IMG/VR virus record: IMGVR_UViG_3300037400_002706
Location: 1-28,281 of that record
Source of the DNA: a virus
Length of the DNA: 28,281 nt
Strand: one strand, 5' to 3'
In this document: positions 342 to 27,534 of the stretch, in pieces
How positions within the stretch are numbered: position 1 is the stretch's first letter
Layout of the letters: each line of letters opens with the position of its first letter
Made by a program: the position numbers and the translations under genes
Notes under the pieces: model-generated
Seen by the model: the letters and a program-made list of their open reading frames with translations, nothing else
What the model was told of the DNA's origin: nothing
The model's database searches: none

Positions 342-481
342 GTTCTTTTTCGCACCTCCGGGATTTTTTCGAGGTGTGCCCCGCCCCCGTTTTTTCTGTA
401 TAAAGAGAATTTTTGTAAATGGTTAATAAAAACATGCTTAGACAAAAACAGAAACAACCTGCAAAGCAGGTTGACCTCCTG
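342..481 (+). promoter_or_regulatory. AT-richer intergenic/leader region upstream of terS; candidate late promoter and/or cos/pac region
   Basis: Hairpin cacctc-N11-gaggtg, T-runs, hairpin cctgc-aaa-gcagg. No function is demonstrable from sequence alone. Confidence 0.3.
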
Positions 482-934
482 CGGATGCGCGTTTCCGGCT
501 CGGAGCTGGCGCGGCTGCTCGGCGTCACGCCGGCCGCCATAACGCAAGGGACTGACCAGGGACGGTTCCGGCGCGACGCGCTGGGGCGCTACACGCTCGG
601 CACCAATGTCCCGGCCTACTGCCAGGCGCTGCGCGAGGCGCAGTCCCGGCGCGAGGAGGGCGACCATCGTGCGGAGCTGGACTACTGGCGAGCCAGGAAG
701 CTCCAGCAGGATGTGCTGGAGGGACGCCAGGAAATCGCCGACCAGATAACCTCCACCATCCTCAACCGCCTCCGCCAGGCGTGCGATCGTCTGCGCCAGG
801 CGTGCGCATCCCACCCCGACGCCGCCGACGCGGTGAGGGCGCTCGCCGACGAGCTGGAGGCGCAGGGCGCGGTGGCGGTGGACGCGGCGGAAAACACGGA
901 ACCAGACAAAGAGGAGACCAATGACAGAGATTAA
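419..934 (+). CDS. terS: Terminase small subunit, Nu1-like (N-terminal HTH plus coiled coil); true start may be the ATG at 482
   Basis: MRVSGSELARLLGVTPAAITQGTDQGRF matches the Nu1-type N-terminal HTH layout. A charged coiled-coil tail follows. The gene is located just upstream of the GpA-type TerL. Confidence 0.7.
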   Translation: MVNKNMLRQKQKQPAKQVDLLRMRVSGSELARLLGVTPAAITQGTDQGRFRRDALGRYTLGTNVPAYCQALREAQSRREEGDHRAELDYWRARKLQQDVLEGRQEIADQITSTILNRLRQACDRLRQACASHPDAADAVRALADELEAQGAVAVDAAENTEPDKEETNDRD

Positions 935-1816
935 CTTCCATCTGGGCGACTGCATGGACTTCATGCGAAGCAAGCCCGACAACTACTACGACCTGGCGGT
1001 CGTGGACCCGCCCTACGGCGGGGGAGGCTCTGGCGACAGCCCTTTTCCGGCGGCGCAAGCCGCTTCGGAGGGCTGTTTAACCGCTACGGCGCAGCCGAAT
1101 GGCGAAATACCCCCCCCGAAGCGAAACCCGATGCGGACGAAAGGGAGGTTCGCAAAATACGAGCGACGGGAATTACCCCCCCCGGATCGACTGCGCGAGA
1201 ACCGGCGGGACCTGGGCGGCCAAATACTCCCGGAAGTCTGCTTCGGAGCCGGACAAGCGGATGGGCGGCGAACTACAGAATTACCCCCCCGCAGGACGGC
1301 GAGGCGCAATCCGCCTCAAGCAACATCGAGTTCTGGGACTTCGCTCCCCCGCAGGAATACTTCGACGAGCTTTTCCGGGTGTCGAGGAACCAGATTATCT
1401 GGGGCGGCAACTACTTCTCCCTGCCACCGACCCGATGCTTCCTGGTGTGGCGCAAGCTGACCATCGCGGAGACATTCACCATGGCGATGTGCGAATACGC
1501 CTGGACCAGCTTCAACGCCAACGCCAAGCTCTTCGAGTGCGCACCGCAGGGCAACGCCAGGGAGAAGCGATTCCACCCGACGCAGAAGCCCGTGAAGCTC
1601 TACACCTGGTGCCTCGGCCTCTTCGCCAAGCCCGGCGACCGGCTGCTTGACACACATGGCGGCTCAATGAGTTCCGCCGTCGCCGCGTGGCAGTTGGGGT
1701 TTGACATGGACATTTGCGAAATCAACGAGTTCTACCTCAATGAGGGTAAACGGCGCGTCGAAAGGGAGATGCGCCAGCCGACACTCAATTTCCAGGATCC
1801 GCCGTCCGATGATTGA
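921..1816 (+). CDS. DNA methyltransferase (beta-class N6A/N4C type, DPPY ... HPTQKP ... LDTHGGS) with interrupted reading frame
   Basis: N-terminus MTEINFHLGDC...DLAVVDPPYGG lies in the frame of 921. The C-terminus RVSRNQIIWGGNYF...EYAWTSF...FHPTQKPVKLY...LLDTHGGSMSS lies in the frame of 1379. I translated that second frame and it is open back to 935. The two frames meet at the G5 tract 1020-1024. Confidence 0.8.
1104..1290 (+). repeat. Four in-phase copies of AAWTAC followed by C8 (1110-1117), C8 (1176-1183), CTCCC (1227-1231) and C7 (1284-1290)
   Basis: gaaatacccccccc, gaattacccccccc, caaatactccc, gaattaccccccc. The TAC triplets lie at 1108, 1174, 1225 and 1282, so all spacings are multiples of 3. 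Confidence 0.9.
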
Positions 1817-3680
1817 CCTCCGCGCATTCTCCGCCGCCCAGACCTCCCGCGACGACATCGCCGCCTGGGACTGCGCCGCCCGCATGGTCCGCGCGTGCGC
1901 CCCTCCCCGGCGCGAACCCATCGTGGAGTGGTGCGAGCGGACCGTGGACATGAGCTACGACCTCACCGCCCACTGCTCTGGGCCGCTGCGCCTGTATCCC
2001 TACCAGCGCGAGCCGCTGGCGGCCACCGAGGACCCTGCGGTGCGCCAGATCTCGCTCATGTGGTCGCCGCGCTTGGGGAAATCGACGGTCTGGAAAATGT
2101 CGCTGCTTAAGCGCCTGCACGACGGCGGGCTGGCGGGCCTCATCGTGTATCCGTCGCTCGACCTGGGGCGCAAGACCAACCACGACACGGTGGAACCGCT
2201 GCTGCGCAGCGTGCCGAGCCTCCGCGCCGATTTGCGGCGGCGCGGGGCCATAACAAAGGACGCCTACCGCCTCCCCAGCGCCCGGAGCATTGTGTACTAC
2301 CTGGGCGGCGGCGCGCAGATCGTGAGCTACACGGCGGGCTGGGGCGTGCTGGACGAGTGCGACCAGGTGGACGTGGGCAACGAGGGCGAGGAGGGGGAAA
2401 ACATCGACCAGCTCCACGCACTGCGGCTGCGGATGCAGACCTATCCCGACCGGCTGCTCATCGCCTGCTCCAGCCCCACCACCCGGCACGGCGTGATCTA
2501 CGGCGCGTGGCGGCAGGGATCGCGGCACGTGTGGCATCTGCGGTGCCAGGGCTGCGGTGCCCTGCACCCGACCTCGCAGCTGGCGTGGCCGCTTCCGGAT
2601 GGCTCCTACGCGGGGCTGCAGTGGGTCAAGGGCGACGGCGGGCAGATCATCCCCGACAGCATCCGATGGATCTGCCCGACCTGCGGGCGGGCGCACACGG
2701 AGGACGAGGCTCCGGCCATGTCCACCTCCGGCTGCTACGTGCCGCAGTGCGAGCCCGGCGAGCACCTCAGCTACCAGGCGGGCGCGCTGGCCAATCCGTG
2801 GCTGTGGCCGTGGATGCAGGTGGCGCAGGCGCAGGAGGACGCGGTGGACACCAAGGGACGCAAGTACCTAGCCAACAACATCCTGGGGAGGCCATACGAG
2901 CCGCGCCAGGCGGCGGACACGCTCACGCAGAGCATCCCCGACGTGCTGGCGTCGCGCCAGGCGGACCCGCCCTCCGACATCCGCGCCCGGCTCGCGTGCG
3001 TGACGATGGGCATCGACCAGCAGGCCAGCGGGCTGGGGGCGCAGCACTACTACGTGTGGGCGGCGCGCGGCTGGGACGAGCAGGGCAACTCGTGGAGCCT
3101 GGGCCACGGCATGGCGCAGAGCCTCCGCGAGCTCGACGCCGCGCTCGACGCGGACTACTGCGGGCAGCGCGTGCTGCTGGCGCTCATCGACCAGGGCGGG
3201 TTCGGGGACAACGCGACCCGCACGGACCCCTGGGTGGCCGCGCGGCGGAACGTATGCTACTACAAGGGCGGCGACGCTCGGACCATCGGGCTGCGTGCCG
3301 GGCAGGCGTGGCGCATGAGCGACACCCAGCGCTATCTCGTGCTGGCGTCCGCGCTCCACTACCAGGCGCAACTGCTCGACCTCATCTACGGTCCGCCGCG
3401 TCCGGTCGGGTACGAGTGGCACCTGCCCACCGCGCCCGACCCCGCGTACGCCTCGCAGCTGGCCGCCATGCGCCCCAACCTCCGGATGCGCGACGGGCGG
3501 GGCGCGGCATTCGCAGCGTGGAGCCCCGGCAGCGAGCGCCACGACTATTTCGACACCGAGAAAATGGCGCTGGCGGCGGTGGACGTGGCCGCCGCGATGG
3601 TGCGCCCGGAGCTATGGCCGCACGGCAGGCTCCCCGCCTACATCGTCGCCGCCGCCATCCGCGACGCCCGCCGGGCGTGA
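1809..3680 (+). CDS. terL: Terminase large subunit, lambda GpA family
   Basis: YPYQREPL, SPRLGKST (Walker A-like), VLDECDQV (Walker B-like) and a CQGCG...CPTCG zinc-ribbon pair. The ATG at 1809 overlaps the methylase stop. The order Nu1-A-W-portal matches lambda. Confidence 0.85.
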   Translation: MIDLRAFSAAQTSRDDIAAWDCAARMVRACAPPRREPIVEWCERTVDMSYDLTAHCSGPLRLYPYQREPLAATEDPAVRQISLMWSPRLGKSTVWKMSLLKRLHDGGLAGLIVYPSLDLGRKTNHDTVEPLLRSVPSLRADLRRRGAITKDAYRLPSARSIVYYLGGGAQIVSYTAGWGVLDECDQVDVGNEGEEGENIDQLHALRLRMQTYPDRLLIACSSPTTRHGVIYGAWRQGSRHVWHLRCQGCGALHPTSQLAWPLPDGSYAGLQWVKGDGGQIIPDSIRWICPTCGRAHTEDEAPAMSTSGCYVPQCEPGEHLSYQAGALANPWLWPWMQVAQAQEDAVDTKGRKYLANNILGRPYEPRQAADTLTQSIPDVLASRQADPPSDIRARLACVTMGIDQQASGLGAQHYYVWAARGWDEQGNSWSLGHGMAQSLRELDAALDADYCGQRVLLALIDQGGFGDNATRTDPWVAARRNVCYYKGGDARTIGLRAGQAWRMSDTQRYLVLASALHYQAQLLDLIYGPPRPVGYEWHLPTAPDPAYASQLAAMRPNLRMRDGRGAAFAAWSPGSERHDYFDTEKMALAAVDVAAAMVRPELWPHGRLPAYIVAAAIRDARRA

Positions 3681-3780: not shown

Positions 3781-4023
3781 ATGTTGACACCCGCCGCCCA
3801 ATCCCTGATCCTGCAGTCCCTCCTGCGCCGCCGCGCCGCCATCCAGCAGCAGCTGGAGGCGGCGCTGGCGCAGCCTGGCTCGTACTCCATCCAGGGCAGC
3901 TACAGCGAGACCGCCCGCGCGGTCTCGGACTACCGCGACCAGATCGAGCGCCTGGACGCGCAGATCCGAGCCCTCGCCGCCGGACAGGGCGACCTGACCT
4001 ACAACTACCCGACCCAGATATGA
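3781..4023 (+). CDS. gpW-like head-tail joining protein
   Basis: 80-aa protein lying between a GpA-type TerL and the portal, as for lambda W. ATGA overlap with the portal start. Confidence 0.55.
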   Translation: MLTPAAQSLILQSLLRRRAAIQQQLEAALAQPGSYSIQGSYSETARAVSDYRDQIERLDAQIRALAAGQGDLTYNYPTQI

Positions 4024-5609
4024 GCAGCATCCTGCGCACCATCCGCACCTGGCTCCGTGGCGGGCGCTCCGACGCCGCCGCGACCGCCTACCGCATCCGC
4101 GCGGCGCAGGCGTGCTATACCGCGCTGGAGCAGGACGCCCATCGCAAGCTGCCGGAGTACCGCAGCGGGCGCACCGAGACACAGCAGGTGATGCCCAGCT
4201 ACCGCCGACTGCTGGGCTATCGCTTCGGCGACCGCGCCTACGACAACGAGATCCCCGGCGCCATCGTAGATACCACCATCCGCCTCACCATCGGCGCGCG
4301 TGGCGGCCGCCCGTATTTCACCGGCGACAACGCGGACGAGCTGCAGCGCCGGTGGGACCGCTGGGCGGCGCACTGCGGCCACCAGGAGGACGAGGCATGG
4401 CCGGAGATGCTGGGCATCGCGCTCCGCGCCGCGAAAACCCACGGGGACTGCCTGGCGCTCATCCACCCCGACCTCACCGGCGGCAAATTGCGCCTGTGGG
4501 ACGCCGACCAGATCGTGGACCATGCTGATTTTCCTGGATGGTGCGCGGCGCGCGGCTGGCACGCGGCGATGGGCGAGATGGACTACGGCTATCGGCAGGT
4601 GGCCGGAGCCGTGACCGACCCGGAGGGCCGCGTGGTCGGGTATTTCGTCACCTGCCTGCGGCAGCAGGCCAGCGCGTCGGGCGACGCGATAACGTTTCTT
4701 CCTGCCTCGCTCTGCCGCCGCATCTCCACACGGCTCAAAATCTCGCAGTATCGCGGCGAGTCCGCCATGCTCCCCCTGGAGGAGCTTACCCACTCCACCA
4801 CCTCGCTGATCAAGTCGGAGGTGGCCGCAGCCAACAATTTTTCGCAGTTGTCGTTTCTGATCATTCGGCCGCCTGGAGGCGGCGACATGCAGTCCGCCAC
4901 CATCGAGGGCGCAATCGACCCGGAAACCGGGATGGTGCGAGACGACGTGGCGGCCATGCTCCCGGGCGGCTCCAACGACCCGCGCGAGCTCATCCGCCAG
5001 ACCGTGCAGGGTCCGCCTGAGATGACGCAGATCGAGGGCAAGTCCGCGTATGGCTCGCTCCCCTACGGCAGCGAGGTGCGCGAGCTGCGCAACTCCGACC
5101 GCCCGTCCACCTCCATCCAGGCATGGCTCGACCGCGCCGCCGACCTCTCCGGCCAGCGGCTCGGCGTGCAGTCCTGCCTGGCGCGCGGACGCAACGACGC
5201 CAGCTACTCCGCCGGGCAGCTGGAGCTCGCCATCTCCTGGGCGAAAATCCAGGAGGACCAGGCGATGCTGGAGCGCCAGCTCATCGACTACGCCGTGGGC
5301 GTGATCTGCCCGGAGGCGACCGACTGGGAGGTGCAGTGGCCGGCCATGATCGACATCGACCCGGCCCGCACCCAGGCCGCCGCAGACGCGGCCATCCGTG
5401 GCGGGCGCGAGACCTACCAGCAGCAGGTCGGGCCCGAGTGGCGCGGGAGGCTCCGCGCCATGAAGCAGGTCCTGGACTACTGCCGCGAGATCGGGCTGGA
5501 CCCGTCCGCGCTGTCCTGGCACGGCGAGACCGGTGCGGGGAACGCCCGCCCGCCCGAGGAGCAAAACGCAACCACGCCGCAGGAGGCGGCGCAACCTACC
5601 GATGGCTAA
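4020..5609 (+). CDS. Portal protein (lambda gpB-like)
   Basis: 529 aa, positioned after terL/W and before the prohead protease. The size is close to that of lambda B. Confidence 0.8.
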   Translation: MSSILRTIRTWLRGGRSDAAATAYRIRAAQACYTALEQDAHRKLPEYRSGRTETQQVMPSYRRLLGYRFGDRAYDNEIPGAIVDTTIRLTIGARGGRPYFTGDNADELQRRWDRWAAHCGHQEDEAWPEMLGIALRAAKTHGDCLALIHPDLTGGKLRLWDADQIVDHADFPGWCAARGWHAAMGEMDYGYRQVAGAVTDPEGRVVGYFVTCLRQQASASGDAITFLPASLCRRISTRLKISQYRGESAMLPLEELTHSTTSLIKSEVAAANNFSQLSFLIIRPPGGGDMQSATIEGAIDPETGMVRDDVAAMLPGGSNDPRELIRQTVQGPPEMTQIEGKSAYGSLPYGSEVRELRNSDRPSTSIQAWLDRAADLSGQRLGVQSCLARGRNDASYSAGQLELAISWAKIQEDQAMLERQLIDYAVGVICPEATDWEVQWPAMIDIDPARTQAAADAAIRGGRETYQQQVGPEWRGRLRAMKQVLDYCREIGLDPSALSWHGETGAGNARPPEEQNATTPQEAAQPTDG

Positions 5610-10273: not shown

Positions 10274-11689
10274 ATGGCTAAAGAGCAGAAAATTAAGACC
10301 ACGCTCACCGGCGACTCGCGAGGGCTCGTCGACGCGCTGGACAACGCGCAGTCCCGGCTGGAGGACCTCTCCGACCAGGCGAAAAAAACGGGCGGCGCCG
10401 TGCAGCAGGCGTTCTCGGCCAACTCCGCAGCCGGGAAGAAACTCGCCGATGGCATCCAGTCCGCCGCAGGGCAGGGGCTGTCCCAGGCGCTCGGCCTGGG
10501 CGGCGCGTCCTCCACGCTGCTGCAGTCCGGCGTCCGCTCGCTGTTTGCCTCCGGCCTCAATCTCGCCCTCCCCGCCCTCGGAGCGGGCCTCGCCGGACTC
10601 GCGGTGCAATTCGGCTCGGCGCTGGCCGACCGCATCTCCCAGGCCCGCGAGATCTCCACGGGCGCGGATGCGACCGGCGGCGACACCGACCTGTACCAGC
10701 GCATCCGGCGCAGCGCAGAGAAGACGGGCGCGTCGGTGGACACCCTGACCGCCGCTTACGCCAAGTTCCAGGCCACCCTGGCGGCAGCGAAAAACGGCAG
10801 CATGGAGGCGCGCGAGGCCCTCGCCAAGCTCGGCTACCAGGCCGACGACCTGACGCAGGACTCGCAGGGATTTCTGCAGGCGCTGGGCTCCGTCGCGACC
10901 GCCACCGACCGCGACGCCACCGCCATGGCGATTTTCGGGGCCAACACGCGCGAGGCCCAGCGGGCGTTCGCGGACCTCGCGGCCACCTCCGGCAGCGCCG
11001 ACGGCATCATCGGACGCGACGCCATCGACGACGCCAACCGCCTCGCCGAGGCGTGGGACCACCTCAAGGAGGCCATCTCCTCATGGAGCGCGGAGACGTT
11101 CGAACCGCTCACCTCCGGCTGGCGCTCGATGCTAGATGGCATCATCTCCGGCACCGCCGACGCGCTGGAGGGGATGGCCGCGCTCGCCGACATGCCGCAG
11201 GAGCTCTCCGACGCCGACCTCGCGGAGGAGCTGGCACGGCGGCAGGAGGAGCTGGCACGGCGGCAGGAGGCCCGACGCACCGCCGAGCAGGAGCGCCGCG
11301 AGCGCGAGCGCCGCGAGCGCAACGAGCGCGCCGACCGTCAGACCCGCGCCTACCATGAGCAGCAGCAGCGCGAAGCCCTCCGCCTCGCCCGCCAGCGCGC
11401 CAAGATCAACCGCGAGTACGAGCTGGCCGGGATGAGCCCGGACAAGCGCCGCCAGGCGGAGCGGCGCGAGTACACGCTGGGCCTGATGGGCATGGGCTAC
11501 AACGAGCGCGAGGCCGAGGCCATCACCCGGCGGCTCTGGGACCCGCGCCAGGCGGGGAAATCCCCCGCCGTGGCGGCTCCCGCCGCCCCCCTCCCGGCGG
11601 CTCCCGGCATCCCGACCGGCGGCGTTGGGCTGGACGCGGTAATCAGAGAGATAAGAGCCTTGCGCTCAAATACCTACGTAGTCAAGTAG
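10274..11689 (+). CDS. Tape measure protein
   Basis: 471 aa, Ala/Gly-rich and helical, with an ERRERERRER charged block. Canonical position. Confidence 0.75.
   Translation: MAKEQKIKTTLTGDSRGLVDALDNAQSRLEDLSDQAKKTGGAVQQAFSANSAAGKKLADGIQSAAGQGLSQALGLGGASSTLLQSGVRSLFASGLNLALPALGAGLAGLAVQFGSALADRISQAREISTGADATGGDTDLYQRIRRSAEKTGASVDTLTAAYAKFQATLAAAKNGSMEAREALAKLGYQADDLTQDSQGFLQALGSVATATDRDATAMAIFGANTREAQRAFADLAATSGSADGIIGRDAIDDANRLAEAWDHLKEAISSWSAETFEPLTSGWRSMLDGIISGTADALEGMAALADMPQELSDADLAEELARRQEELARRQEARRTAEQERRERERRERNERADRQTRAYHEQQQREALRLARQRAKINREYELAGMSPDKRRQAERREYTLGLMGMGYNEREAEAITRRLWDPRQAGKSPAVAAPAAPLPAAPGIPTGGVGLDAVIREIRALRSNTYVVK
11224..11270 (+). repeat. 21-bp tandem duplication (2.2 copies) inside the tape measure gene
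   Basis: ggaggagctggcacggcggca occurs at 11224-11244 and again at 11245-11265, then a partial ggagg. It encodes EELARRQEELARRQE. Confidence 0.9.
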
Positions 11690-17644: not shown

Positions 17645-18072
17645 TTCGGGCGGTTTCCGAGTGATGTTGCGACAAACCGCGCAAAATCGCTCAAAACCGC
17701 TATATTATGCGCATGGCACGCAGGGCGCTCAAAGGCATGGGCCGGATCTACCGGCGGGGGACATCGTGGTGGCTGGACTACACGGAGGCGGGGGTGCGCC
17801 ATCGGCACCCGCTGCGCACGCCGGACGGCGAGCCGTGCCGGACGCGCCAGGAGGCCGAGGCGGAGCGGAGGCGGCATCCCGTCCAGCAGGATTTCCGCGC
17901 GCGGCCACGCACGGTCGATTTTCGCCAGCGTCAGGCCGCCTACCTGGCGCTGGCCAGATAATAGCGCATTGACATATGGCTGGCTGAGATGTAGCCGCCG
18001 CGCGAGATGCTGTTGCGTTTCGCCGCTGGCATACGCTGCTACTATGGCTGATTTTATCGTTTCTGTTATCAT
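17632..18072 (-). CDS. XRE/Cro-CI-type HTH repressor candidate; its C-terminal ~90 codons are antisense to the integrase remnant
   Basis: MITETIKSAIVAAYASGETQQHLARRLHLSQPYVNALLSGQRQVGGLTLAKIDRAWP is an HTH. The remainder is Pro/Arg-rich antisense read-through. It is the only minus-strand gene and faces the early promoter divergently. Confidence 0.6.
   Translation of the reverse strand: MITETIKSAIVAAYASGETQQHLARRLHLSQPYVNALLSGQRQVGGLTLAKIDRAWPRAEILLDGMPPPLRLGLLARPARLAVRRAQRVPMAHPRLRVVQPPRCPPPVDPAHAFERPACHAHNIAVLSDFARFVATSLGNRPKTAQ
17707..17961 (+). pseudogene. int: Tyrosine integrase N-terminal (arm-binding domain) remnant; the catalytic domain is absent
   Basis: MGRIYRRGTSWWLDYTEAGVRHRHPLRT...TRQEAEAE matches the common G.IY.RG..WW..Y...GKR.R.S integrase N-terminus. 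The ORF stops after 84 codons and no integrase-like continuation exists anywhere in the circle. Confidence 0.65.
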
Positions 18073-18118
18073 TTTTCGCAAAATTTAATGTTTTTTTTGA
18101 TTTTTTTTGGAAAATCGC

Positions 18119-18146
18119 TTGAAATTATCACAATTGGGATTATAAT
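18119..18146 (+). promoter_or_regulatory. Sigma70-like early rightward promoter
   Basis: TTGAAA (18119-18124), 16-nt spacer, TATAAT (18141-18146). It is flanked by three T8 runs. Confidence 0.55.
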
Positions 18147-18174
18147 ATAAGCGTTGCCGATTTTTTTTGAACAA

Positions 18175-18195
18175 AATTATCAAACTGCGATAATT
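18175..18195. promoter_or_regulatory. Operator-like palindrome aattatc-N7-gataatt; a third half-site aattatc at 18123-18129 overlaps the -35
   Basis: Read directly. The same 7-mer half-site occurs three times within 75 bp of the divergent region. Confidence 0.5.
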
Positions 18196-18222
18196 CAACC
18201 ACTCCCAAAGGAACCTCAGAAA

Positions 18223-20569: not shown

Positions 20570-20611
20570 TCCCCCCCCACAACCAACCGCAAACAATTAG
20601 GAGACAAATAG

Positions 20612-24369: not shown

Positions 24370-25111
24370 GGGCAAAGTGCATTGTTTTTTTGAGCAAAGC
24401 GGAACTTTTAAAAACGCGTTCATCCAACTGGGCATCCGCGCCGAGGACTACGACATCCAGAACAACTTTGGCGAGACCGACCACACCGACGACCTTTTCC
24501 AAGCCATCGAGGATGCGTACGACGGGCGGCCGTCGCTCTTCGACGCCATCACGCCCGACGACCTGATAATGGCATTCTTCCCGTGTATCTACTTCTGCGA
24601 AAATAACAAACTCTATTTTCGCGGAGAACACAATACAATGGCGAAAATCGACAACTGCAAAAAATGCGAACGGATAATCCAGAGAGAATTTAAACGCTGT
24701 GATTTTTATGTGCGGCTGCTGAAATTGTGCCACGAATGCGAGATACGTAACCTCCGGATGATAATCGAAAATCCATATCACCCAGAGCATTACCTGGTAA
24801 ACAACTTCCCATATCGTGCCACGATAATCGACCATGACAGGACGCAAAGAGGGGATTTTTTCAGGAAACCGACGCAGTTTATCTATGTAAACTGTTCAAG
24901 GACTTACGGCTCGACAATCCAAAAAACACCTCGTAATGCGGTTAGGACGGTTTGCCATGCGAAAAGCGGACGAAATGGTCTATGTTCGATGGAACGCTCG
25001 ATGATATCCCCGGACTACGCGAGAAACTTCATCTGTGACTTCATCCTTGGCAAAGAACAGCCGGAGATAGACAGGCAGCCGACCCTGCCGTTCGGGGAGG
25101 GATGGAAATGA
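24359..25111 (+). CDS. Divergent C5-cytosine methyltransferase-like protein (low confidence)
   Basis: FFEQSGTF (motif I-like), AFFPCIYF (PC motif IV-like), IIENP (ENV-like), TQRGDFFRKPT (QxRxR-like). Clearly AT-richer than its flanks. Confidence 0.35.
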   Translation: MEIKGKVHCFFEQSGTFKNAFIQLGIRAEDYDIQNNFGETDHTDDLFQAIEDAYDGRPSLFDAITPDDLIMAFFPCIYFCENNKLYFRGEHNTMAKIDNCKKCERIIQREFKRCDFYVRLLKLCHECEIRNLRMIIENPYHPEHYLVNNFPYRATIIDHDRTQRGDFFRKPTQFIYVNCSRTYGSTIQKTPRNAVRTVCHAKSGRNGLCSMERSMISPDYARNFICDFILGKEQPEIDRQPTLPFGEGWK

Positions 25112-26864: not shown

Positions 26865-27086
26865 ATGCCCTCACTGAAGCGCATACGCGAACTGGCGAAC
26901 GAATACCTCGGCTTCCGCTACCCGAAGAGCGCTGGCGACCGGCTGGAGATGGCGAGGTTCGACCGCGAGGCGGACACCGTTTCGGAGTTCGTCGCGTGGA
27001 TGGAGGCCGACGAGTGGATGGCGAAAATCGCAAGGAAACAACAACAACCACAACCCAACAAACCAAGAAGACACGGAAATGACTAA
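26865..27086 (+). CDS. Hypothetical small protein
   Basis: 73-aa ORF starting 3 nt after the upstream stop. Its 3' end overlaps the next ATG. Confidence 0.45.
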   Translation: MPSLKRIRELANEYLGFRYPKSAGDRLEMARFDREADTVSEFVAWMEADEWMAKIARKQQQPQPNKPRRHGND

Positions 27087-27534
27087 AAAAAACTGGGGAC
27101 TCAAGGACATCGTGCCATCGCCGGAGCTATGCAAGGAAATCCCGCCCGGCAAGTTCAAGCATTCTGCGCTGGTCTGGACGAAATACCATCGCGGTAGCAC
27201 CTCGGATGTGCCATATGTTCGGGAGCGTGAGTTTGGCGACGAAGCGCCGAATGTCTGGTCAGCGCCGACAGCCGAGGAAATCCTGTGCGCGCTTGAACAC
27301 ATGCTTGAGGATTGGCGCATCTACCCCATCACTGCACTGCAATGGCTGATGTATGGGCGGGTTGCATGCACCGGAAAGACAAAGGCTGGCGACGCGCTGC
27401 CAGTATTGCAGGACGGTAACATCGCCGGTGCGCTTTTGAAACTCTGGCTGAAGGCGCGGAAGATGGAAGAAATTCGCGCCGAGATGGAAAACGAAGCAAA
27501 CAAAGAGGAAATCGAGGATGAGCATGGAGAATAG
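27079..27534 (+). CDS. Hypothetical protein
   Basis: 151-aa ORF in an AT-richer segment. Confidence 0.5.
   Translation: MTKKNWGLKDIVPSPELCKEIPPGKFKHSALVWTKYHRGSTSDVPYVREREFGDEAPNVWSAPTAEEILCALEHMLEDWRIYPITALQWLMYGRVACTGKTKAGDALPVLQDGNIAGALLKLWLKARKMEEIRAEMENEANKEEIEDEHGE

Follow-up and report, generated by a model that had tools for sequence, protein, structure and literature searches.

How did the DNA methyltransferase gene at positions 921–1816 of the viral record IMGVR_UViG_3300037400_002706 come to be split between two reading frames, and what could bring the two parts together? The analysed stretch of DNA, referred to below as the window, is 28,281 nt long, has a GC content of 66% and represents an uncultured phage; its ends share a 127-nt terminal direct overlap, as had already been described. 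A preliminary description of this DNA had proposed a phage orphan methylase that is gated by a homopolymer or dependent on frameshifting, with a run of five G residues (G5) at 1020–1024 as the gate. The general idea holds in our analysis, and G5 as the gate does not. Probably, the linker that follows the catalytic DPPY motif is a multi-tract contingency (phase-variable) region, in which slippage would change the lengths of several runs and of which the window carries a putative OFF allele. The pattern is found throughout the methylase family and is accompanied by linker modules that are kept in different reading frames, which makes the locus more interesting than the claim originally made for G5.

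Anatomy of the split methylase gene

A protein search over 5.8 billion proteins yielded the close relatives of the methylase, and their DNA was then compared (loci are cited by L numbers and proteins by P numbers). The frame-2 translation of the window gene matched Pfam family PF01555 (N6_N4_Mtase) with 31.1 bits against a cutoff of 26.7 (E 2.8e-7), and most homologs are already annotated with this family; the term "adenine-specific" is a label of the JGI annotation only. Motif DPPY (1005–1016) lies upstream of LDTHGGSMSS (1646–1675), the two being in different frames in the window, and the residues D, P, P and Y are invariant among 40 homologs. By its motif order (motif IV before motif I), the region 921–1816 is predicted to encode a beta-class N6-adenine/N4-cytosine DNA methyltransferase of PF01555. 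The enzyme is an orphan, and its gene lies within the packaging operon.

The elements of the gene are as follows, with frames counted from ATG 921 as frame 0 and pN/pS standing for the ratio of nonsynonymous to synonymous polymorphism.

921–1019, plus strand: N-terminal segment of the methylase, frame 0, beginning with ATG 921; catalytic motif IV, DPPY, at 1005–1016
1020–1024, plus strand: G5 run within the glycine codons GGC GGG GGA GGC, the switch proposed in the preliminary description; assessed by DNA and protein alignments
1040–1046, plus strand: CCCTTTT, junction between the N-terminus (frame 0) and module A (frame 2), from the comparison with relative L247
1040–1108, plus strand: module A, PFSGGASRFGGLFNRYGAAEWRN, frame 2, from pN/pS; motif RFGGxFxxY found across the family
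1104–1117, plus strand: repeat copy 1, GAAATACCCCCCC, with poly-C run 1 (C8, 1110–1117)
1137–1175, plus strand: module B, TKGRFAKYERREL, frame 0, from pN/pS; the intact proteins P0002 and P0003 use the same frame
1170–1183, plus strand: repeat copy 2, GAATTACCCCCCC, with poly-C run 2 (C8, 1176–1183); first frame break relative to intact L001
1183–1227, plus strand: module C, RIDCARTGGTWAAKY, frame 1; matches RIDCARTGGTWAAKYSRKSASEPDKRMGGELQNYPP of P0002; motif RTGGTWxxKY family-wide
1278–1290, plus strand: repeat copy 3, GAATTACCCCCCC, with poly-C run 3 (C7, 1284–1290); second frame break relative to intact L001
1292–1816, plus strand: tail and C-terminal S-adenosylmethionine (AdoMet)-binding domain, frame 2; PF01555; stop codon 1814–1816

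Frame 0 starts with ATG 921, encodes MTEINFHLGDCMDFMRSKPDNYYDLAVVDPPYGGGG..., MTEIN...DLAVVDPPYGGGG, and ends with a stop at 1460. Frame 2 remains free of stops from 935 as far as the TGA at 1814–1816 and encodes NIEFWDFAPPQEYFDELFRVS, IIWGGNYF, HPTQKP and LDTHGGSMSS; its tail and C-terminal domain (C-domain) carry NIEFWDFAPPQEYF, IIWGGNYF, HPTQKP (1574–1591) and motif I LDTHGGSMSS (1646–1675). The earlier assignment of the N-terminus to the frame of 921, and of IIWGGNYF, HPTQKP and LDTHGGS to another frame open back to 935, was therefore correct. The two frames were also said to meet at G5; however, both are open over 935–1460, an overlap of 525 nt, and homology places the N-terminal frame change at CCCTTTT (1040–1046). 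Since both frames are open there, any insertion of one nucleotide within 935–1460 fuses them. In silico edits adding one nucleotide at G5, as had been predicted for a G6 allele (about 298 aa), or at any of the three poly-C runs gave an open reading frame (ORF) of 298 aa in each case, so G5 is not singled out by this property. The 298-aa ORFs obtained from the different sites differ in their linker sequence.

Openness of all three frames across the linker was dismissed as a signal, spurious long ORFs being common in a window with 66% GC. A split enzyme produced by internal initiation was also dropped: frame 2 lacks any potential start codon (ATG, GTG or TTG) from 935 to 1379. Among the relatives, L006 has no start codon ahead of module C, and an ATG after the G run is present only in the L045 series.

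Poly-C runs and the position of the break

The dominant feature of the linker, overlooked in the preliminary description, is a set of three poly-C runs (C8 at 1110–1117, C8 at 1176–1183 and C7 at 1284–1290), all within 190 nt. Each run sits in a 13-nt direct repeat, GAAWTACCCCCCC, whose copies are 66 and 108 nt apart; three copies were found against 0.06 expected. These runs make up three of just five C/G runs of at least 7 nt in the 28-kb window.

Three relatives have the gene as a single ORF, namely L001 (protein P0002, 284 aa), L003 (P0003, 288 aa) and L004 (P0004, 292 aa). All of them read DPPYGGGG and then go on in the same frame, e.g. GGGGSGDSPFPAAQAGSEGG...; further on, P0002 reads ...GRFAKYERRELPPPRIDCARTGGTWAAKYSRKSASEPDKRMGGELQNYPPPQEGEEQSASSNIEFWDF, which corresponds to frame 0 of the window up to run 2, to frame 1 between runs 2 and 3, and to frame 2 thereafter. 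Compared with L001, the window lacks 2 nt each at run 2 (C8 vs. C8TC) and run 3 (C7 vs. C9). By this alignment, the window carries what appears as an OFF allele, with the N-terminus in frame 0 and the C-domain in frame 2, and its break relative to the intact relatives maps to poly-C runs 2 and 3, not to G5.

The runs differ in length among the relatives. Run 1 is C8 in the window, L004 and L247, C10 in L002 and L005, and absent in L001, L003 and L166; run 3 is C7 in the window, C8 in L003 and L004, C9 in L001, C10 in L002 and C11 in L005. Close relatives vary at the poly-C runs and almost nowhere else. L002 and L005 are 99.3% identical over 3788 nt, and the sole frame-changing indel between them is C10 vs. 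C11 in this run. Amino-acid identity of the window tail and C-domain to L001, L002 and L005 is 94%.

Scans of viral, genome, and metagenome contigs added one further close relative (L166), the remaining matches having identities of 70% or less. The DNA search of cultured phages gave short matches only (72–79% identity), and the protein search of cultured phages gave nothing above 47% amino-acid identity. No record was found by exact-protein look-ups of the window small terminase and the frame-0 ORF.

Slippery runs and frame state across the family

Overall, 251 loci were gathered from viral, genome, and metagenome collections and scored for the frame of the DPPY N-terminus against that of the C-domain; the census comprised 200 non-redundant loci or genes. 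Slippery linker runs were present in more than half of these 200 loci, from rumen, termite-gut, human-gut, and other metagenomes, so that the pattern is widespread. Where the linker contained a G or C run of at least 7 nt (n = 108), 30% of the loci were intact, and the offsets 0/1/2 between the N-terminus and the C-domain (33/33/42) were indistinguishable from random phase. Intact genes made up 90% of the loci whose linker has no homopolymer or dinucleotide repeat (n = 60) and 100% of the distant relatives with a linker of at most 80 nt (n = 28). Even loci with a G7 run were intact in just 25% of cases. Besides homopolymer runs, the linker may contain a second kind of slippery repeat, (GA)n, read as ...NVERERERE... 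(L030 at ~2850; P0040, P0055, P0061, P0066, P0070, P0089, P0110); 20% of the 15 loci with such linkers were intact, and 12 of 15 were out of frame. Linkers of other lineages hold G7–G13, A7/A8 or (GA)n repeats, and repeats are kept across very divergent lineages.

About 70% of the loci with slippery runs are out of frame in the assembled consensus, and in about 47% of all family loci the gene is not a single ORF. As a consequence, gene prediction yields split or truncated genes or nonsensical linker translations, and existing annotations of this family cannot be relied upon. The damage is confined to the linker: in 87 of the 94 broken genes, the N-terminal and C-terminal domains are each uninterrupted. 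Together with the purifying selection on both domains described below, this indicates that the gene is not decaying.

Length polymorphism of the runs was evident among near-identical sequences. Eleven near-identical IMG/VR contigs have G7, G8, G9, G10 or G5AG5 directly after the DPPF codons, i.e. at the position of the window G5. Gene pairs with zero substitutions differ by 1–2 nt in a run (L021/L023; L022/L026, in two runs; L055/L241). In near-identical contigs, A/T runs of at least 7 nt were constant in 24 of 24 cases, whereas G/C runs varied in 15 of 26, which speaks against a generic error in the sequencing of homopolymers. In the sister contigs L249 and L250, one extra G (G8 to G9) at the window-G5 position gives a perfect 240-aa enzyme. 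The G-run mechanism put forward in the preliminary description is thus valid for the family and for that very position in relatives, but in the window the gate probably lies in the poly-C runs. Here, a stable G5 is what is left of the G run, and its role has passed to newly arisen poly-C runs.

Several runs were seen next to, or in duplicate with, the methylase. A contig of a metagenome-assembled genome (MAG), JAFURY010000094.1, contains two copies of the methylase locus (L096, 61926–68393, and L120, 20841–27308), both with G11 and G8; L094 from another MAG, near-identical to L096 and L120, has G10 and G8. Long G runs also occur in genes adjoining the methylase, in L022 at 2145 (G8), in L036 at 2118 (G7, vs. 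G8 in L026) and in L249 at 2575 (G9). One G run in the neighbour genes likewise differs between near-identical contigs, and these runs may be further contingency loci.

Linker modules in different reading frames

The linker is composed of module A (RFGGxFxxY), sometimes module B (GRFAKY), module C (RTGGTWxxKY) and a tail, in this order. In the window lineage, pN/pS of the N-terminus was 0.22 in frame 0 and >1.5 in the other frames. Module A had 0.15 in frame 2 vs. 1.60 in frame 0, with its variable sites distributed over frame-2 codon positions 1/2/3 as 7/4/15 (p = 0.024). Values for module B were 0.29, 3.85 and 1.04 in frames 0, 1 and 2, respectively; module C had its lowest value, a weak 0.58, in frame 1. 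For the tail, 0.23 was obtained in frame 2, and for the tail together with the C-domain 0.23–0.30. The motif of module C is kept in 30 distinct DNA versions; the test of its entropy by codon position was used solely for this persistence across DNA versions and is in part circular, since codon positions 1 and 2 are set by the regular expression.

Intact ORFs of the window lineage read module A in frame 0. L247 has CCCCTTTT at 1040–1046, which brings the N-terminus and module A in frame, and L166 likewise has the two in frame; both alleles are broken further downstream. The true junction was therefore placed at 1040–1046. In a second lineage, the L045 series, pN/pS of module A was 0.10 in its own frame and 0.71 in the frame of the ORF.

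Across A7 runs, the C-to-tail offset was 0 or −1, never +1, and the run reads A_AAA_AAA in the frame of module C. Offsets across G runs were uniform (27/23/19), and those across C runs were without strong bias.

Structural position of the linker

In the AlphaFold model of the in-frame homolog P0006, the core is predicted with confidence, while linker residues 33–93 have predicted local distance difference test (pLDDT) values below 50, and the structural claim is accordingly limited to the position of the linker. In a Foldseek search with this model, the best matches were CcrM (6PBD, E 1.6e-9) and M.BceJIV (8URK, E 3.1e-9); M.RsrI, M.MboIIA, and M.PvuII were matched as well, and structures of Type III Mod proteins were weak fold matches (E 4.5e-4). 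CcrM and M.BceJIV, both beta-class N6-adenine methyltransferases, share with this family the DPPY motif and the beta-class fold, but the sequence identity is just 16–18%. Loop-2B of CcrM (residues 31–61) begins with DPPY, is disordered without DNA and reads the first three bases of GANTC, with Pro45 intercalating into DNA (PMC6787082). The linker of the methylase family begins exactly at the start of Loop-2B; it is hypervariable and reaches up to ~110 residues, vs. 30 in CcrM. From this position, the linker may contact DNA.

A multi-tract contingency linker as the probable explanation

The stretch between DPPY and the rest of the enzyme would thus act as a hypermutable linker, in the window with three poly-C runs in GAAWTACCCCCCC units. 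Slipped-strand mispairing during replication of the phage DNA would alter the run lengths, and with each change the essential C-terminal domain would come into, or drop out of, the frame of the catalytic N-terminus. Starting from the OFF allele of the window, slippage by +1 in any one of the three C runs would be enough to regain a 298-aa ORF; the same change in G5 would also do so but is less probable. Different ON combinations would read the linker modules in different frames, giving both OFF states and several full-length variants.

Several observations agree with what characterizes contingency loci based on simple-sequence repeats. The repeats lie inside an ORF above chance expectation, their length polymorphism among near-identical genomes exceeds that of other sites, and the run length toggles the frame of an otherwise intact and selected gene. 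From these observations we infer the slippage itself, its reversibility, a rate of switching and an effect on methylation.

Several points weigh against this explanation in its simple form. Intact alleles account for 30% of the run-bearing loci, i.e. the chance level, and selection for the ON state is therefore not visible. One base in a C8 run of the window may be miscalled. Module A is constrained in a frame that is not read by the intact ORFs of its own lineage, with pN/pS of 0.15 and 0.10 in the two lineages. Among 58 loci without a repeat between modules A and C, 40 have an A-to-C offset of +1, a fixed state common to a large clade. Simple ON/OFF switching leaves the module data unexplained, which hints at recoding or isoform switching.

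A wider version of the contingency explanation can be put forward tentatively, although we consider it rather doubtful. The linker could be a combinatorial frame-switching cassette in which slippery runs and fixed +1/−1 offsets bracket modules A, B and C. Slippage, possibly together with +1/−1 recoding, would pick the modules that are read natively, and one gene would give OFF states as well as several full-length isoforms differing at the position of the target-reading loop. Since in CcrM this loop reads the target bases, such a switch would alter methylation specificity or activity, beyond turning it on and off.

Alternative explanations

Recoding survives best among the alternatives, and as an explanation of the whole pattern it is still unlikely. 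In this scenario, a native N-A-B-C-tail enzyme would be made from the multi-frame gene by ribosomal frameshifting or RNA-polymerase slippage; in the window, this would take a −1 shift at C_CCU_UUU (1040–1046) and a +1 shift by tRNA-Pro at each poly-C (polyproline) run, and it may add to variation at the DNA level. CCC-C is a +1-prone site for tRNA-Pro, all three poly-C junctions of the window need exactly +1, and C_CCU_UUU in frame 0 has the formal shape of a −1 slippery heptamer. Each module is constrained in its own frame, yet no allele of the lineage joins all of them, and the same applies to the L045 series; the prevailing +1 offset at repeat-free A-to-C junctions and the lack of +1 across A7 runs, with A_AAA_AAA in the C frame, also speak for recoding. 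In the L045 series, A_AAA_AAC occurs just ahead of module A in the ORF frame, and the frame of module A ends with GTG(G/A)GGAC-TAT-CCC-TAG, which we take to resemble the prfB cassette AGGGGG-UAU-CUU-UGA. Both candidate sites are located ~75–120 nt downstream of the DPPF codons and bracket exactly the 20 codons by which the two readings differ.

The sites themselves, however, argue against recoding. No conserved structure was detected by RNAalifold downstream of 1040–1046 in six sequences (0 compensatory pairs), and the heptamer is itself part of the predicted helix. CCCTTTT also encodes P-F-S in module A, which accounts for its conservation without a slippery site. The Shine-Dalgarno (SD)-like GGAGG sequence 12 nt upstream of 1040–1046 consists simply of glycine codons. 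Most +1 junctions have no recognisable shifty codon or stop, the candidate sites are not conserved across lineages, and the offsets are uniform across G runs (27/23/19) and not strongly biased across C runs. Four successive shifts would result in a very low yield.

An assembly or sequencing artefact, in which the true gene would be intact and the homopolymer lengths of the contig miscalled, is improbable. A single miscalled C would suffice to break the ORF or to restore it, and G/C homopolymers belong to the runs that are prone to such errors. However, an L001-type reading would need two separate 2-nt errors and the all-native reading four errors, and the same phenomenon is present in independent short-read assemblies (MEGAHIT k87/k141, SPAdes, Logan). 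The invariance of A/T runs (24 of 24) speaks against an error of the long-read type. Besides, even among loci with G7 runs, the shortest counted, just 25% are intact, and offsets occur also at junctions free of repeats. The view of the preliminary description that short-read assembly makes homopolymer error unlikely is reasonable and is indirectly backed by the constancy of A/T runs between near-identical contigs; the positions it quoted for three other homopolymers were 1–2 nt off, the runs being A8 at 27085–27092, T7 at 24385–24391 and A7 at 10382–10388.

Highly improbable is a plain pseudogene, i.e. a dispensable methylase in decay with the runs merely marking where breakage fell. The broken window allele, the ~47% of family loci that are not single ORFs and the lack of enrichment of ON alleles among tract-bearing loci would fit it. 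On the other hand, 87 of 94 broken genes are damaged in the linker alone, even though the two domains beside it offer a larger target, and pN/pS of the N-terminus and the C-domain is 0.2–0.3 with broken members included. Further disabling mutations in close relatives had been named as the mark of a pseudogene; in the N- and C-terminal domains of the window-lineage members, no nonsense mutation or non-tract indel was found. The repeats are, moreover, maintained across very divergent lineages.

The proposal that G5 is the gate, through slippage from G5 to G6 or ribosomal slippage on GGGGGAGG, is hardly tenable: the G6 ORF of 298 aa would read module A natively and resemble the natural in-frame variant L247, and relatives have a variable G7–G13 at the homologous position, with L249 rescued by one extra G, but the 12 nt GGCGGGGGAGGC are identical in the window, L001, L002 and L005, L003 and L004 have GGCGGAGGAGGC of equal length with no run (GGAGGAGG replacing G5 in L003, L004 and L247), intact alleles read through in frame 0 (L001, L003 and L004 pass through this 12-nt stretch without leaving the N-terminal frame), slippage is far less likely on 5 nt than on the three C7–C8 runs 90–270 nt downstream, and the junction defined by homology is at 1040–1046. 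The 12-nt stretch being constant in length and read through, G5 is neither polymorphic nor the point of disruption.

Neighbouring genes and other repeats

The phage genes of the window include those of the small terminase (419–934), the large terminase (from 1809), a lambda-family portal gene (4020–5609), and genes of a head protease and an exonuclease. The methylase is flanked by two of these.

419–934, plus strand: small terminase subunit gene (PHROG 57, E 2.3e-7); its 3′ end overlaps the methylase start
1809–3680, plus strand: large terminase gene, GpA type (PHROG 15, E 2.6e-46)

The methylase start overlaps the end of terS at 921–934, and its stop overlaps the ATG of terL by 8 nt at 1809–1816 (ATGATTGA). 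The frame state of the methylase could therefore influence translational coupling into the large terminase. The same terL arrangement is found in L003, L246 and L247; in L001, L002 and L005, the methylase gene adjoins dUTPase and 3′-phosphoadenosine 5′-phosphosulfate (PAPS)-reductase genes instead. Other DNA/RNA-modification genes stand beside the methylase in L004 (1287–3263 and 3911–4975; a 658-aa protein with an S-adenosylmethionine (SAM)-synthetase domain and an RNA ligase) and in L248 (1–428 and 1337–2254; a C5 methylase and a D12-class methylase). Some of these phages thus carry several methylases.

Just upstream of terS, at 316–336, G6 (316–321) and C7 (330–336) are the two arms of an inverted repeat, GGGGGG-ATGGGCCT-CCCCCCC, with a T-rich stretch behind it; this resembles the hairpin of a terminator or, alternatively, a further slippery site. 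The only other long C run outside the methylase, C8 at 20571–20578, directly follows ...CATGTAA and is apparently located just past a stop codon, between genes. The AT-rich intergenic region 18060–18200 has three copies of GATTTTTTTTG (T8 at 18091, 18101 and 18161) and a near-consensus promoter, TTGAAA-N17-TATAAT, around 18118–18146, and is probably an early regulatory or divergent-promoter region.

Comparison with known systems

Phase-variable methyltransferases of bacteria comprise the Type III mod phasevarions and homopolymer-bearing Type I, II and IIG genes in Haemophilus, Neisseria, Helicobacter, and Campylobacter. As in these, a simple-sequence repeat inside the ORF of the window methylase shifts the frame between ON and OFF, and run lengths differ between near-identical genomes. 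In contrast to them, the gene is phage-borne, encodes a small orphan PF01555 enzyme without a Res or HsdR partner and is located between terS and terL; a phasevarion consists of a Type III Mod gene with an adjacent res gene, and here the neighbours are terminase genes. Whereas the bacterial genes have a single tract, up to three or four runs occur in one ~300-nt linker of this family. These runs lie in the loop right after the catalytic motif, and the in-frame combinations therefore give different full-length proteins.

In phages, polyG tracts in receptor-binding genes of Campylobacter Fletchervirus were reportedly described by Sorensen et al. in 2021. Contingency loci of phages T2 and T4 have also been described (bioRxiv 10.1101/2025.10.21.683753). 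As in the methylase, homopolymers within phage ORFs make frameshift variants there, which are read as bet-hedging. Those tracts belong to receptor-binding and other genes of cultured phages and are usually single, unlike the methylase family, which is known from metagenomes only and has several tracts and modules in different frames. The methylase Bpm (bbp30) of Bordetella phage BPP-1 contains a G8 run within its coding sequence at codon ~195, close to motif I. This polyG run was noted and never followed up (bioRxiv 10.1101/2025.10.21.683753). Bpm is, like the family described here, a phage PF01555-type DPPY methylase with an ORF-internal run; it differs in having a single run outside the post-DPPY linker and no modular multi-frame linker, and the BLASTP match is distant (E 3e-4). 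A search of the literature found no description of this methylase family or of a multi-tract methylase linker.

Programmed frameshifts are represented by prfB, with +1 at CUU_UGA and an upstream SD sequence, and by dnaX and IS elements, with −1 at A_AAA_AAG. Sites of similar form are present at linker junctions, namely C_CCU_UUU in the window and A_AAA_AAC, A_AAA_AAA and SD-UAU-CCC-UAG in relatives; unlike in prfB and dnaX, no stimulatory structure was found here and no site is conserved across lineages, so these are candidate shifts only. If recoding is involved, the family would supply many natural +1/−1 shift sites for study. If isoforms are selected in the DNA-reading loop, this would be a new route to diversity of methylation specificity from one small gene. 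Through orphan methylases, phages protect their DNA against the restriction systems of their hosts. If such a methylase is switched at random, this would represent bet-hedging on the phage side of the restriction-modification arms race, mirroring the phase-variable restriction-modification systems of bacteria.

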